Of a stretch of DNA of 64,000 bases, positions 5,498-20,375 are shown one piece after another (position 1 is the first letter of the stretch; each line of letters starts with the position of its first letter). The notes beneath the pieces are model-generated. The model had not been told where the DNA came from. It did no database searches and saw only the letters and a list, made by a program, of their open reading frames with translations. The DNA is from Escherichia coli (lineage in GTDB: Bacteria; Pseudomonadota; Gammaproteobacteria; Enterobacterales; Enterobacteriaceae). Both the position numbers and the translations under genes were made by a program. The stretch lies in assembly GCF_030384885.1 (NCBI RefSeq), contig NZ_CP128613.1. One strand, given 5' to 3'.

Positions 5498-7671
<2,174 letters not shown>

Positions 7672-8971: not shown

Positions 8972-9985
8972 ATGTCTGAAGGCTGGAACATTGCCGTCCT
9001 GGGCGCAACTGGCGCTGTGGGCGAAGCCCTGCTTGAAACGCTGGCTGAACGTCAGTTCCCGGTTGGGGAAATTTATGCACTGGCACGTAACGAAAGCGCA
9101 GGCGAACAACTGCGCTTTGGTGGTAAGACAATCACCGTGCAGGATGCCGCTGAATTCGACTGGACGCAGGCGCAACTGGCGTTTTTTGTCGCAGGCAAAG
9201 AAGCTACCGCTGCCTGGGTTGAAGAAGCGACCAACTCAGGTTGCCTGGTGATCGATAGCAGCGGATTGTTTGCTCTCGAACCTGACGTACCGCTGGTGGT
9301 GCCGGAAGTAAACCCGTTTGTACTGACCGATTACCGCAACCGAAATGTCATCGCCGTACCGGACAGTCTGACCAGCCAGCTGCTGGCGGCACTGAAACCG
9401 TTAATCGATCAGGGCGGTTTGTCACGTATCAGCGTCACCAGCCTGATTTCTGCCTCCGCCCAGGGTAAAAAAGCGGTCGATGCGTTAGCAGGGCAGAGCG
9501 CGAAACTGCTGAACGGTATTCCGATTGACGAAGAAGATTTCTTCGGTCGTCAGCTGGCGTTCAATATGCTGCCGTTACTGCCGGATAGCGAAGGTAGCGT
9601 GCGTGAAGAACGTCGTATCGTTGACGAAGTACGCAAAATCCTGCAAGACGAAGGGCTGATGATTTCGGCAAGCGTCGTCCAGGCACCGGTTTTCTACGGT
9701 CATGCCCAGATGGTCAACTTTGAAGCACTGCGTCCGCTGGCGGCAGAAGAAGCGCGTGATGCGTTTGCCCAGGGCGAAGATATTGTGCTCTCTGAAGAGA
9801 ACGAATTCCCGACGCAGGTGGGGGATGCTTCTGGTACGCCGCATCTTTCCGTTGGCTGTGTACGCAATGACTACGGTATGCCGGAGCAAGTCCAGTTCTG
9901 GTCAGTGGCCGATAACGTTCGCTTTGGCGGCGCGCTGATGGCAGTAAAAATCGCCGAGAAACTGGTGCAGGAGTATCTGTACTAA
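8972..9985 (+). CDS. usg: Aspartate-semialdehyde dehydrogenase paralog Usg (function unknown)
   Basis: 337-aa ORF with N-terminal Rossmann motif (VLGATGAVG); classic pdxB-usg-truA-dedA order. Confidence 0.92.
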
Positions 9986-15367: not shown

Positions 15368-16885
15368 ATGTGCGGTATTGTCGGTATCGCCGGTGTTATG
15401 CCGGTTAACCAGTCGATTTATGATGCCTTAACGGTGCTTCAGCATCGCGGTCAGGATGCCGCCGGCATCATCACCATTGATGCCAATAACTGCTTCCGTT
15501 TGCGTAAAGCGAACGGGCTGGTGAGCGATGTCTTCGAAGCTCGCCATATGCAGCGTTTGCAGGGCAATATGGGCATTGGTCATGTGCGTTACCCCACGGC
15601 TGGTAGCTCCAGCGCCTCTGAAGCGCAGCCGTTTTACGTTAACTCCCCGTATGGCATCACGCTTGCCCACAACGGCAATCTGACCAACGCTCATGAGTTG
15701 CGTAAAAAACTGTTTGAAGAAAAACGCCGCCACATCAACACCACTTCCGACTCGGAAATTCTGCTTAATATCTTCGCCAGCGAGCTGGACAACTTCCGCC
15801 ACTACCCGCTGGAAGCCGACAACATCTTCGCCGCCATCGCCGCTACAAACCGCTTAATCCGCGGTGCGTATGCCTGTGTGGCGATGATTATCGGCCACGG
15901 TATGGTGGCTTTCCGCGATCCTAACGGTATTCGTCCGCTGGTACTGGGGAAACGTGATATCGACGACAATCGCACAGAATATATGGTCGCTTCCGAAAGC
16001 GTTGCGCTCGATACCCTGGGCTTTGATTTCCTGCGTGACGTCGCGCCGGGTGAAGCGATTTACATCACTGAAGAAGGGCAGTTGTTTACCCGTCAGTGCG
16101 CTGACAACCCGGTCAGCAATCCGTGCCTGTTCGAGTATGTTTACTTTGCCCGTCCGGACTCGTTCATCGACAAAATTTCCGTTTACAGCGCGCGTGTGAA
16201 TATGGGCACCAAGCTGGGCGAGAAAATTGCTCGCGAATGGGAAGATCTGGATATCGACGTGGTGATCCCAATTCCGGAAACCTCTTGTGATATCGCGCTG
16301 GAAATCGCGCGTATTCTGGGCAAACCGTACCGCCAGGGCTTTGTGAAAAACCGCTATGTTGGCCGCACCTTCATTATGCCTGGCCAGCAGCTGCGTCGTA
16401 AGTCCGTGCGCCGTAAACTGAACGCCAACCGCGCTGAATTCCGCGATAAAAACGTCCTGCTGGTCGATGACTCCATCGTGCGTGGTACCACTTCTGAGCA
16501 GATTATCGAGATGGCGCGTGAAGCCGGAGCGAAGAAAGTTTACCTCGCTTCTGCGGCACCGGAAATTCGCTTCCCGAACGTTTACGGTATCGATATGCCG
16601 AGCGCCACGGAACTGATCGCTCACGGTCGCGAAGTAGATGAAATTCGCCAGATCATCGGTGCTGACGGGTTGATTTTCCAGGACCTCAACGATTTGATCG
16701 AAGCCGTTCGCGCTGAAAACCCGGATATCCAGCAGTTTGAATGCTCGGTGTTCAACGGCGTCTACGTCACCAAAGATGTTGATCAGGGCTACCTCGATTT
16801 TCTCGATACTTTACGTAATGACGACGCCAAAGCAGTGCAACGTCAGAACGAAGTGGAAAATCTCGAAATGCATAACGAAGGATGA
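15368..16885 (+). CDS. purF: Amidophosphoribosyltransferase
   Basis: 505-aa ORF starting MCGIVGI (Ntn glutamine amidotransferase Cys1) with PRPP-binding region. Confidence 0.97.
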
Positions 16886-16979: not shown

Positions 16980-17549
16980 ATGAAACGACTTATTGTGGGC
17001 ATCAGCGGTGCCAGCGGTGCGATTTATGGCGTGCGTTTATTACAGGTTCTGCGTGATGTCGCAGATGTTGAAACGCATCTGGTAATGAGCCAGGCCGCGC
17101 GCCAGACCTTATCTCTTGAAACGGATTTTTCCCTGCGCGAAGTGCAGGCGTTAGCTGATGTGACGCACGATGCGCGCGATATTGCCGCCACCATCTCTTC
17201 TGGTTCTTTCCAGACGTTGGGGATGGTGATTTTACCCTGTTCAATCAAAACCCTGTCCGGCATTGTGCATAGCTATACGGATAGCTTACTGACCCGTGCG
17301 GCAGATGTGGTGCTGAAAGAGCGTCGCCCGCTGGTGCTCTGCGTGCGTGAAACACCGTTGCACTTAGGCCACCTGCGTTTAATGACTCAGGCGGCAGAAA
17401 TCGGTGCGGTAATTATGCCTCCCGTTCCGGCATTTTATCATCGCCCACAATCCCTTGATGATGTGATAAATCAGACGGTTAACCGTGTACTCGATCAATT
17501 CGCCATAACGCTTCCTGAAGATCTCTTTGCCCGCTGGCAGGGCGCATAA
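16980..17549 (+). CDS. ubiX: Flavin prenyltransferase UbiX
   Basis: 189-aa ORF, flavoprotein fold; synteny with purF. Confidence 0.95.
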   Translation: MKRLIVGISGASGAIYGVRLLQVLRDVADVETHLVMSQAARQTLSLETDFSLREVQALADVTHDARDIAATISSGSFQTLGMVILPCSIKTLSGIVHSYTDSLLTRAADVVLKERRPLVLCVRETPLHLGHLRLMTQAAEIGAVIMPPVPAFYHRPQSLDDVINQTVNRVLDQFAITLPEDLFARWQGA

Positions 17550-17557
17550 CCTCATTG

Positions 17558-17581
17558 TTGCCCTGTTTCAGGGCAATTTTG
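17558..17581 (+). terminator. Rho-independent terminator after ubiX
   Basis: ttgccctg-ttt-cagggcaa followed by TTTT. Confidence 0.8.
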
Positions 17582-17730
17582 CAACCGCGATCAAATCCTC
17601 AACATTTTGTTTCTGCCATTCAATCGAAACGCTGCGATTCAACCGCTATACCTGCTATCTTCAACTTCAGGACAATAATGCAACGTCTTGTTAACATATT
17701 TAACGTTGAATGTTACTGTTGTCGTCAAGA

Positions 17731-17746
17731 TGGCATAAGACCTGCA
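17731..17746 (+). promoter_or_regulatory. sigma54 (-24/-12) promoter of argT
   Basis: TGGCATaagacCTGCA matches the TGGCAC-N5-TTGCA consensus about 70 bp upstream of argT. Confidence 0.7.
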
Positions 17747-17814
17747 TGAACGAGCCTGCAAACACACAACACAATACACAACATAAAAAAAGCCATTTCA
17801 CTTGAGGGTTATGT

Positions 17815-18597
17815 ATGAAGAAGTCGATTCTCGCTCTGTCTTTGTTAGTCGGGATTTCTGCAGCAGCTTCCAGCTACGCGGCGCTGCCGGAGACGGTACG
17901 TATCGGAACGGATACCACCTATGCACCGTTCTCATCGAAAGATGCCAAAGGTGACTTTGTTGGCTTTGATATCGATCTCGGTAACGAGATGTGCAAACGG
18001 ATGCAGGTGAAATGTACCTGGGTTGCCAGTGACTTTGACGCGCTGATCCCCTCACTGAAAGCGAAAAAGATCGACGCCATTATTTCGTCGCTCTCCATTA
18101 CGGATAAACGTCAGCAGGAGATTGCCTTCTCCGACAAACTGTACGCCGCAGACTCTCGTCTGATTGCTGCCAAAGGTTCACCGATTCAGCCAACGCTGGA
18201 TTCACTGAAAGGTAAACATGTTGGTGTGCTGCAGGGATCAACCCAGGAAGCGTATGCCAATGATAACTGGCGTAGCAAAGGCGTGGATGTGGTGGCCTAT
18301 GCTAACCAGGATTTGGTCTATTCCGATCTGGCTGCGGGACGCCTGGATGCCGCTCTGCAAGATGAGGTTGCTGCCAGCGAAGGTTTCCTCAAGCAACCTG
18401 CCGGTAAAGATTTCGCTTTTGCAGGCCCTTCAGTGAAAGACAAAAAATACTTCGGTGACGGCACCGGTGTCGGGCTACGTAAAGATGATGCTGAACTGAC
18501 GGCTGCGTTTAATAAGGCGCTTGGCGAGCTGCGTCAGGACGGTACCTACGACAAGATGGCGAAAAAGTATTTCGACTTTAATGTCTACGGTGACTGA
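17815..18597 (+). CDS. argT: Lysine/arginine/ornithine-binding periplasmic protein
   Basis: 260-aa ORF with signal peptide; paralogous to the next ORF (HisJ); sigma54-type promoter upstream. Confidence 0.95.
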
Positions 18598-18637
18598 TAC
18601 GTCGCAGGGAAGCTGTACCTGATGGAATGATCATCAT

Positions 18638-18671
18638 GGTGCACGCCAGGTTGTTGCACTATCGTGGTGCA
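18638..18671 (+). promoter_or_regulatory. NtrC-type enhancer sites upstream of hisJ
   Basis: TGCACTAtcgTGGTGCA (near-perfect TGCACCA-N3-TGGTGCA) with an adjacent TGGTGCA half-site. Confidence 0.6.
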
Positions 18672-18816
18672 TTAAAATGCATACTTAAGCATTTTTAATG
18701 AAAAATAATACGTCTAACGGGGCGGGATATTTTGCCTTGATGGTCAATTTTATGGCACGATAAGTGTAACAAACCTGTAAATATTCCCTATAAAAAGACT
18801 GTCAGTTGAGGACATT

Positions 18817-19599
18817 ATGAAAAAACTGGTGCTATCGCTCTCTCTGGTTCTGGCCTTCTCCAGCGCAACGGCGGCGTTTGCTGCGATTCCGCAAAACATC
18901 CGCATCGGTACCGATCCGACCTATGCGCCATTTGAATCAAAAAATTCACAAGGTGAACTGGTTGGCTTCGACATCGATCTGGCGAAGGAGTTGTGCAAAC
19001 GCATCAATACGCAATGTACGTTTGTCGAAAACCCACTGGATGCGTTAATCCCATCCTTAAAAGCGAAGAAGATTGACGCCATCATGTCATCGCTTTCCAT
19101 TACGGAAAAACGTCAGCAAGAAATAGCCTTCACCGACAAACTGTACGCTGCCGACTCTCGTCTGGTAGTGGCGAAAAATTCCGACATTCAGCCGACAGTC
19201 GAGTCGCTGAAAGGCAAGCGCGTAGGCGTATTGCAGGGCACCACCCAGGAGACGTTCGGTAACGAACACTGGGCACCAAAAGGCATTGAAATCGTCTCTT
19301 ATCAGGGGCAGGACAACATTTATTCTGACCTGACTGCCGGACGTATTGATGCCGCATTCCAGGATGAGGTCGCCGCCAGCGAAGGTTTCCTCAAACAACC
19401 CGTTGGTAAAGATTACAAATTCGGTGGCCCGTCTGTTAAAGATGAAAAACTGTTTGGCGTAGGTACCGGCATGGGTCTGCGTAAAGAAGATAACGAATTG
19501 CGCGAGGCACTGAACAAAGCCTTTGCCGAAATGCGCGCTGACGGTACTTACGAGAAATTAGCGAAAAAGTACTTCGATTTTGATGTTTATGGTGGTTAA
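18817..19599 (+). CDS. hisJ: Histidine-binding periplasmic protein
   Basis: 260-aa ORF with signal peptide; first gene of hisJQMP. Confidence 0.95.
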
Positions 19600-19620
19600 T
19601 CGCCATCGGTGAAAGAAAGC

Positions 19621-19649
19621 CCGCTCCCTTCGGGTAACCGGAGGGAGAC
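19621..19649 (+). other. Stable hairpin in the hisJ-hisQ intercistronic region
   Basis: ctccct...agggag inverted repeat right after the hisJ stop, no U-run; consistent with the REP-like stabiliser/attenuator described for this operon. Confidence 0.6.
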
Positions 19650-19688
19650 AAGAGGCGGTAATTCACCACACACGACAGGACAGGCAGC

Positions 19689-20375
19689 ATGTTGTATGGG
19701 TTTTCAGGTGTTATTTTACAGGGTGCGCTCGTCACGCTGGAGCTGGCGATCAGCTCTGTAGTGCTCGCTGTAATCATCGGTTTAATTGGCGCTGGCGGTA
19801 AGCTCTCGCAAAATCGGTTTTCGGGGCTGATTTTCGAAGGGTATACCACGCTGATTCGTGGCGTGCCGGATTTAGTGTTGATGCTGCTGATTTTCTACGG
19901 TTTGCAGATTGCGCTAAACACGGTGACGGAGGCGATGGGCGTCGGGCAGATTGATATCGATCCGATGGTCGCAGGTATTATCACTCTCGGTTTTATCTAC
20001 GGTGCTTACTTCACCGAAACGTTTCGTGGCGCGTTTATGGCAGTGCCAAAAGGGCATATAGAGGCGGCAACGGCGTTCGGTTTTACTCGTGGGCAAGTGT
20101 TTCGGCGGATTATGTTTCCGGCGATGATGCGTTACGCCCTGCCAGGCATTGGCAACAACTGGCAGGTGATCCTCAAATCTACCGCTCTGGTTTCGTTACT
20201 CGGCCTGGAAGATGTGGTCAAAGCCACGCAGCTGGCAGGCAAAAGTACCTGGGAACCGTTCTATTTCGCCATCGTTTGTGGCGTGATTTACCTGGTTTTC
20301 ACCACCGTTTCCAATGGTGTGCTGCTGTTCCTTGAGCGCCGCTACTCCGTGGGTGTGAAGAGGGCTGACCTGTGA
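19689..20375 (+). CDS. hisQ: Histidine ABC transporter permease HisQ
   Basis: 228-aa hydrophobic ORF; overlaps hisM start. Confidence 0.95.
   Translation: MLYGFSGVILQGALVTLELAISSVVLAVIIGLIGAGGKLSQNRFSGLIFEGYTTLIRGVPDLVLMLLIFYGLQIALNTVTEAMGVGQIDIDPMVAGIITLGFIYGAYFTETFRGAFMAVPKGHIEAATAFGFTRGQVFRRIMFPAMMRYALPGIGNNWQVILKSTALVSLLGLEDVVKATQLAGKSTWEPFYFAIVCGVIYLVFTTVSNGVLLFLERRYSVGVKRADL

Follow-up and report, generated by a model that had tools for sequence, protein, structure and literature searches.

An ordinary enterobacterial nitrogen-control region, ubiX-argT-hisJQMP, lies in the 64-kb stretch of Escherichia coli DNA analysed here (contig NZ_CP128613.1; the window, whose numbering we use throughout). 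It contains an intact sigma54 promoter in front of argT, NtrC-binding sites in the spacer between argT and hisJ, and, before hisJ, a sigma54-like element whose -24 half is perfect and whose -12 half is degenerate. Comparison with other genera shows that this last element is orthologous to a genuine hisJ sigma54 promoter of ancestral origin, changed at -12 in this lineage. We tentatively favor, at only just under an even chance, the explanation that the spacer sites are the enhancer of this weakened promoter, acting on top of a sigma70 promoter modulated by ArgR and of read-through from argT.

The argT promoter and the NtrC-bound spacer are already known and represent expected nitrogen-regulation (Ntr) biology, and the literature on Salmonella already mentions a sigma54-like sequence at hisJ. 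Because the finding mainly confirms the textbook nitrogen control of basic amino-acid and histidine transporters, its value is that of a correct annotation. The modest addition is the comparative picture, in which most genera have a canonical hisJ promoter, Escherichia has exchanged GC for GT in it, and a site upstream of argT has been lost in the same genus.

The argT promoter is intact and, in K-12, occupied by sigma54

The first-pass annotation had placed a sigma54 element before argT, and it is there: TGGCATAAGACCTGCA occupies 17731-17746 (+ strand) and ends 68 bp short of the argT ATG (17815). It reads TGGCAT-AAGAC-CTGCA and, with its GG and GC 10 bases apart, satisfies the sigma54 pattern. 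In K-12 MG1655, both regulatory spacers are essentially the same as in the window and all three motifs (the argT element, the NtrC palindrome and its adjacent half-site) are identical, so that K-12 data transfer directly. The element equals the published argT sigma54 site. Chromatin immunoprecipitation followed by sequencing (ChIP-seq) of sigma54 in K-12 reported the same 17-mer upstream of argT as site OS22 (FAT 12; PMC4591121), chromatin immunoprecipitation on microarrays in Salmonella yielded an identical argT sequence (PMC3844500), and systematic evolution of ligands by exponential enrichment (SELEX) with the sigma54 holoenzyme gave a peak at the argT site (PMC8743547). In line with these maps, argT is described as sigma54/NtrC-dependent (PMC6640053). 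A sigma70 promoter is reported to overlap the sigma54 site (window 17730-17760), and sigma54 polymerase to repress transcription from it in vitro (PMC4551910).

To score the element, we used weight matrices made from published in-vivo-bound sigma54 sites with argT excluded, in versions with 41 and 134 training sites, and scanned 127,968 positions in the window. The argT site ranked second with the 41-site matrix and fourth with the 134-site matrix, and it scored above 46 of the 134 bound sites. The loose pattern TGGCAY-N5-YTGCW occurs twice in the 64 kb, against 0.53 expected. Our cross-species counts refer to 78 usable Enterobacteriaceae species loci, which were fetched with HisJ and are phylogenetically non-independent; the order ubiX-argT-hisJ-hisQ is kept in all of them, and a -24/-12 motif precedes argT in every one (scores 11.8-18.8). 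Taken together, we regard it as all but certain that the argT sigma54 promoter is real.

Further positions with sigma54-matrix scores at or above that of argT are 59490-59506 (+), 7409-7425 (-), 61959-61975 (-) and 9554-9570 (+). By coordinate conversion, the high-stringency K-12 ChIP-seq list apparently holds no site besides argT across the stretch that matches most of the window.

NtrC sites in the argT-hisJ spacer

The near-consensus NtrC palindrome and adjacent half-site proposed for the spacer are both confirmed, and they lie inside a published NtrC ChIP-seq peak. The palindrome is centered 154 bp before the hisJ ATG (18817), with a neighboring half-site, TGGTGCA(C), at 18637-18644. In nitrogen-starved K-12, NtrC ChIP-seq peak 12 (2424941-2425021 in U00096.2; 23.7-fold; assigned to hisJQMP; PMC4066584) maps 131-211 bp upstream of the hisJ ATG. 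This interval, placed by way of the argT start that the sigma54 ChIP-seq and the K-12 annotation imply, corresponds to 18606-18686 in the window and contains the palindrome. The first-pass annotation had named the absence of NtrC from 18638-18671 and of rpoN-dependent transcription at argT as grounds for rejecting its proposal; published K-12 data show NtrC at the one place and sigma54 at the other. We thus consider it highly probable that NtrC binds the palindrome at 18655-18671, along with weaker half-sites on its flanks, when cells are starved of nitrogen.

By number alone, the motifs exceed chance only modestly: TGCAC-N7-GTGCA has a single occurrence in the window against 0.12 expected, and 10 of 100 shuffles contain at least one. 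The reality of the sites rests on their position, conservation and published occupancy. An NtrC-like 17-mer with at most three mismatches is found in the spacer of 73 of the 78 species, whereas random sequences matched for length and composition have one in about 1% of cases. The GTGC of the right half-site is invariant across 18 genera, and within Escherichia the palindrome is conserved while neighboring bases vary. On these comparative grounds, the spacer NtrC sites are under selection.

Upon comparison with other genera, the Escherichia arrangement appears reduced. The second element is a half-site only; its 17-mer (18627-18643), centered 28 bp from the palindrome, has four mismatches, all in the left half. 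Other genera carry two or three full NtrC sites in the spacer, 22-30 bp apart. Relative to these, the Escherichia spacer has a 21-bp gap, about two helical turns, by which the third NtrC-like site is gone and the helical phase is kept.

The half-site is at the same time the 3' arm (TGGTGCA, 18637-18643) of a longer hyphenated palindrome, which is conserved elsewhere as TGCACC-N18-GGTGCA and folds as an RNA hairpin that lacks a U-run. This 30-bp palindrome may represent a pair of weak NtrC sites that overlap, or a hairpin at the 3' end of the argT mRNA. An extreme form of the latter idea, that the spacer palindromes are altogether RNA hairpins at the argT mRNA 3' end and not protein sites, draws on the modest excess of motif counts, on the folding of both 18614-18643 and 18655-18671 as hairpins in predicted RNA, and on the fact that in-vitro NtrC SELEX did not list the spacer. 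We consider it very improbable, given the 23.7-fold peak in vivo on an identical K-12 sequence and given that the letters conserved in 73 of 78 species are those of the NtrC half-site TGCAC/GTGCA, not compensatory stem changes. A scan of 17300-19800 against Rfam at E<=1 returned no match.

A degenerate sigma54-like element precedes hisJ

The first-pass annotation had found no matching -12 element in front of hisJ. This is narrowly right, and it left unreported a perfect -24 with a degenerate -12 at 18753-18768. Here, TGGCACGATAAGTGTA (TGGCAC-N5-GTGTA) places a perfect -24 hexamer 64 bp before the hisJ ATG and at the correct spacing from its -12 half, in which -13/-12 is GT, not GC, and the base at -15 is G. 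The element does not satisfy the GG-N10-GC pattern. It ranks 7th in the window with the 41-site matrix and 18th with the 134-site matrix, which makes it a marginal candidate when judged by score. All six Escherichia sequences (the window, E. coli, E. albertii and the cryptic clades) have this GT and share the entire GTGTA; K-12, E. albertii and the cryptic clades match the window over the whole element.

Outside Escherichia, the same position commonly holds an intact promoter. An orthologous TGGCA[CT] lies 63-140 bp before the hisJ ATG in 74 of the 78 species, and in 57 of the 78 the position carries GG-N10-GC. Canonical hisJ promoters occur in Citrobacter, Franconibacter, Kluyvera, Pseudocitrobacter, Superficieibacter, Buttiauxella, Shimwellia and Mangrovibacter; the Citrobacter ortholog, TGGCACGATAACTGCA, scores above 123 of the 134 bound sites. 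These canonical orthologs in other genera indicate that the hisJ element descends from an ancestral hisJ sigma54 promoter. The -12 half has been damaged independently elsewhere: Klebsiella pneumoniae and Raoultella have GG, some Enterobacter have CC, and Cedecea is without the element.

Within E. coli, 4,310 of 5,421 genomes match the window at 99% or better (given the query length, with no mismatch) over the 89 bp that precede the hisJ ATG, and in the two variant alleles that we inspected the differences fall outside the hisJ element. Both of these alleles have a T/G polymorphism at 18789 (TATAAA vs GATAAA), 28 bp before the hisJ ATG. This is probably the main variant among the approximately 20% of complete E. 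coli genomes that differ in the 89-bp stretch.

In favor of continued promoter activity, four of the 135 bound sites have a GT at -13/-12, the confirmed pspA and pspG promoters among them. Salmonella hydN, considered as a further precedent for a GTGTA -12 half, was dropped, as the spacings given in the paper's main text and supplement differ. A preprint counts hisJ among the known sigma54 targets and as a direct Lrp-activated gene (10.1101/276808).

Proposed upstream activation of a weakened hisJ promoter

From the spacer palindrome it is 117 bp downstream to the start that the degenerate hisJ element would give, and 925 bp in the opposite direction to the argT promoter, the closest sigma54 promoter that is intact. 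This geometry suggests how the region may work. The spacer sites would have been the upstream enhancer of an ancestral hisJQMP sigma54 promoter, of which TGGCAC-N5-GTGTA at 18753-18768 is the presumed remnant. The start from this remnant would lie about 117 bp from the palindrome center and about 145 bp from the half-site, downstream of both. Once the -12 dinucleotide had changed from GC to GT in Escherichia, the hisJ promoter would bind sigma54 polymerase poorly and provide a modest NtrC-dependent boost. This boost would come on top of transcription from a sigma70 promoter, which ArgR modulates from the neighboring ARG boxes, and on top of transcripts that would read through from the argT promoter because no good terminator follows argT. 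Taken on its own, the possibility that the degenerate hisJ element is the main target of the spacer sites is one that we place somewhat short of even.

Several observations weigh against this assignment. With the 134-site matrix, the hisJ element scores 10.9, above only 10 of the 134 bound sites, and 17 window positions score higher. There is no hisJ peak among the 135 high-stringency E. coli sigma54 ChIP-seq sites, and the supplementary material searched for that paper, assumed to include the low-stringency list, makes no mention of hisJ. Genomic SELEX with the sigma54 holoenzyme likewise gave no hisJ peak, with or without NtrC (PMC8743547), and the in-vitro NtrC SELEX mentioned above did not recover the enhancer. 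The Salmonella LT2 ortholog, TGGCACGATAGTCGCATC, keeps the GC, and a literature footnote calls it probably inactive. In growing cells, hisJ transcription is reported to start from a sigma70 promoter and to be subject to weak repression by ArgR, whose binding site lies 17 bp upstream of the -35 (PMC6640053). TGGCAC is invariant even where the -12 has been lost, which could stem from overlap with the sigma70 promoter rather than from sigma54 use, and NtrC sites are no weaker where the -12 has decayed (mean best mismatch 2.1 for sigma54 scores below 10 vs 2.6 for scores of at least 14).

Two of these points admit other readings. The sigma54 ChIP-seq cultures were in mid-log growth in M9 and are not described as nitrogen-starved; in such cells, an overlapping active sigma70 promoter could exclude sigma54 polymerase at hisJ. 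The undiminished NtrC sites would fit either a -12 that is allowed to vary or a further role of the sites.

Sigma70 and ArgR at hisJ

The first-pass annotation had cautioned that the NtrC sites might work through a sigma70 promoter or at a distance. The caution was fair, in that a sigma70/ArgR hisJ promoter has been reported and sigma54 occupancy has not. The block beginning AATGCATACTTAAGCATTTTTAATG is the most conserved of the spacer, and its ARG-box-pair score is tied for rank 1 in the whole window. In the register 18676-18714, the pair ends 17 bp before TTTGCCT, in agreement with the published description of ArgR at hisJ (PMC6640053). From that distance, TTGCCT is a candidate for the sigma70 -35 of hisJ. 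A SELEX study instead guessed TTGAAA-16-TTTAAT (PMC3946193), so that the two literature-derived placements disagree; our own sigma70 consensus scan of 17500-19750 returned no site. Across the same interval, terminator-like hairpins were weak only, with none convincing after argT, and the IHF core pattern WATCAANNNNTTR had no match in either spacer.

These features would allow a route that does not involve sigma54, in which NtrC at 18655-18671 displaces or counteracts ArgR, or alters the DNA shape for the sigma70 promoter. A gap of 4 bp separates the palindrome from the best-fitting ARG-box pair, which in an alternative register would overlap the palindrome. The weak ArgR repression of hisJ is described as non-steric (PMC6640053), a constitutive sigma70 promoter was located in the spacer by SELEX (PMC3946193), and the published sigma54 maps are silent at hisJ. 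We nevertheless judge the sigma70 route distinctly improbable. Since ArgR represses hisJ weakly, its relief would give little induction, and the family-wide canonical -24/-12 at a fixed distance points to sigma54 as the original partner of the NtrC sites. Enteric NtrC, an AAA+ activator, is known to activate only sigma54 polymerase, and at the sigma70 promoters glnAp1 and glnL it represses.

The argT promoter lacks a recognizable NtrC site of its own

Within the 330 bp upstream of argT, the best NtrC 17-mer has five mismatches to the consensus, which is chance level. The published NtrC signal assigned to argT is weak: peak 13* (2425861-2425941; 5.4-fold) was missed by the peak caller and marked by hand (PMC4066584). 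It maps 48-128 bp upstream of the argT ATG and is centered on the -24/-12 motif itself. Many other genera have a good NtrC palindrome after the ubiX stop, such as TGCGCCAGTGTGGTGCA in Buttiauxella and TGCACCAATCTGGTGCT in Pseudocitrobacter, with a second palindrome 30-33 bp downstream of the first. In Salmonella and Citrobacter the first of these sites has degenerated; Escherichia, with a gap of about 24 bp, does not have it. The palindrome TGCCCTGTTTCAGGGCA, which takes the second position after ubiX in the window, aligns with NtrC-like TGC-N11-GCA palindromes elsewhere and here has six mismatches to the NtrC consensus; together with its T-run, it probably forms a ubiX terminator hairpin.

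The lack of a recognizable argT-upstream site, combined with a weak NtrC signal centered on the promoter, leaves some room for the idea that the spacer sites also serve the argT promoter. In its strict form, the spacer sites would mainly activate this promoter, 0.9 kb upstream, by looping, hisJQMP would be induced by read-through, and the hisJ element would be a dead relic. Each of the features just described fits: the 330 bp without a credible 17-mer, the missing post-ubiX segment that carries an NtrC-like palindrome in many genera, and the signal on the -24/-12, as a looped contact would give. So do the absence of reported sigma54 occupancy at hisJ from published maps and the lack of a good argT-hisJ terminator in our hairpin scan. 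Reitzer and Magasanik reportedly found in 1986 that NtrC sites function when moved far from, or downstream of, glnAp2. We nonetheless find this form rather unlikely. In published work, a 198-bp fragment equivalent to window 17559-17756, which does not include the spacer, had the highest activity among 12 plasmid-borne sigma54 promoters, and an argTp-lacZ fusion moved to the lac locus reacted to the loss of GlnK to roughly the same extent as native argT did. Moreover, the spacer sites are kept equally in species with good argT-upstream sites, with no sign of compensation (Spearman 0.02, 78 species), and the phase-preserving 21-bp deletion in the spacer suggests a short-range partner. A related proposal is that the Escherichia enhancer, left without a working local sigma54 promoter, now serves the argT promoter wholly or in part, the genus having deleted the NtrC site upstream of argT; this, too, we hold to be unlikely.

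We therefore retain, tentatively, the weakened hisJ promoter as the partner of the spacer sites. The strongest NtrC occupancy of the locus adjoins an element without the -12 GC, and the intact argT promoter has no recognizable NtrC site of its own. Whichever promoter the enhancer targets, the locus would be a natural example either of a tolerated -12 variant or of long-range downstream enhancer action in bacteria, and the answer bears on how hisJQMP is filed in regulon databases. If the argT reading were true, it would describe a natural bacterial enhancer that acts from downstream of the gene it controls, arrived at through promoter decay and enhancer re-use.

Other features upstream of argT include an inverted repeat, GTTAACATATTTAAC (17690-17704), centered about 60 bp upstream of the predicted argT start, whose TTAACA is invariant in 19 genera, and two blocks that are near-invariant across genera upstream of the argT promoter, GATCAAATCC (17589-17598) and CTGCTATCTT (17652-17661). 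The C/A-rich stretch of the argT leader is likely a pairing site for the small RNA GcvB, to judge from its composition; argT is a verified GcvB target via seed R1, and hisQ is another target (PMC9299463). In E. albertii, 13 bases of this C/A-rich leader are missing.

Genomic context

The gene assignments made earlier, ubiX-argT-hisJQMP, were right: the region around argT-hisJ, on which we judged identity with relatives, is 99.9% identical to the annotated chromosome of E. coli 2013C-4282; against most other complete E. coli genomes, the identity is about 98%. The RefSeq annotation uses the same gene names, and hisQMP lie downstream of hisJ on the + strand. The interval 17400-19000 has a match of at least 99% in one of 5,426 complete E. 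coli genomes (2013C-4282), with nearly all others at 95-99%; this single match suggests that the window comes from an uncommon lineage. Table 1 collects the coordinates.

Table 1. Genes and regulatory features of the ubiX-argT-hisJQMP region, in window coordinates.
Feature	Position	Strand	Sequence	Remark
purF	15368-16885	+		annotated gene order
ubiX	16980-17549	+		annotated gene order
Palindrome followed by ATTTTG	17559-17581	+	TGCCCTGTTTCAGGGCA	just after ubiX stop
argT sigma54 promoter (-24/-12)	17730-17746	+	ATGGCATAAGACCTGCA	predicted start near 17757
C/A-rich stretch of argT 5' leader	17760-17785	+	AAACACACAACACAATACACAACATA	from sequence
argT coding sequence	17815-18597	+		lysine/arginine/ornithine-binding protein
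30-bp hyphenated palindrome	18614-18643	+	TGTACC-N18-GGTGCA	just after argT stop
NtrC-binding palindrome	18655-18671	+	TGCACTATCGTGGTGCA	1 mismatch to TGCACCA-N3-TGGTGCA
Putative ARG-box pair (ArgR operator)	18676-18714	+	AATGCATACTTAAGCATT-TTT-AATGAAAAATAATACGTC	placement inferred
Candidate sigma70 -35 of hisJ (TTGCCT)	18731-18737	+	TTTGCCT	invariant in 18 genera
Degenerate sigma54-like element	18752-18768	+	ATGGCACGATAAGTGTA	start from element would be near 18779
hisJ coding sequence	18817-19599	+		histidine-binding protein; first gene of hisJQMP

Comparison with known systems

The closest known counterpart of the argT promoter is argTp of E. coli K-12 and Salmonella Typhimurium, which shares the 17-mer ATGGCATAAGACCTGCA, the distance to the argT ATG and the gene order ubiX-argT-hisJQMP. 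Nothing material differs; the window departs from K-12 by a few substitutions outside the motif. For the spacer, Ames and Nikaido are said to have footprinted an NtrC site in 1985 in the Salmonella dhuA regulatory region, the counterpart of the region upstream of hisJQMP. The NtrC-bound region upstream of hisJQMP in K-12 (peak 12; PMC4066584) contains the same palindrome as the window, TGCACTATCGTGGTGCA, with no sequence difference between K-12 and the window.

The module as a whole resembles glnAp2, in which a -24/-12 promoter has two NtrC sites, about 110 and 140 bp upstream. In the window, the start predicted from the TGGCAC-N5 element would be preceded by the full NtrC site at about 117 bp and by the half-site at about 145 bp, and orthologous modules with a canonical -12 exist in Citrobacter, Buttiauxella, Kluyvera and others. 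By contrast with glnAp2, the -12 of Escherichia hisJ has GT in place of GC with G at -15, sigma54 occupancy has not been reported, and the stretch from enhancer to promoter also holds an ArgR operator and a sigma70 promoter. The same GC-to-GT exchange at -13/-12 is present in pspA (TTGGCACGCAAATTGTA) and pspG (TTGGCATGATTCTTGTA), which are bound in vivo and experimentally confirmed. The psp promoters differ from the hisJ element in having TT at -15/-14, where hisJ has GT, and in being served by PspF, not NtrC.

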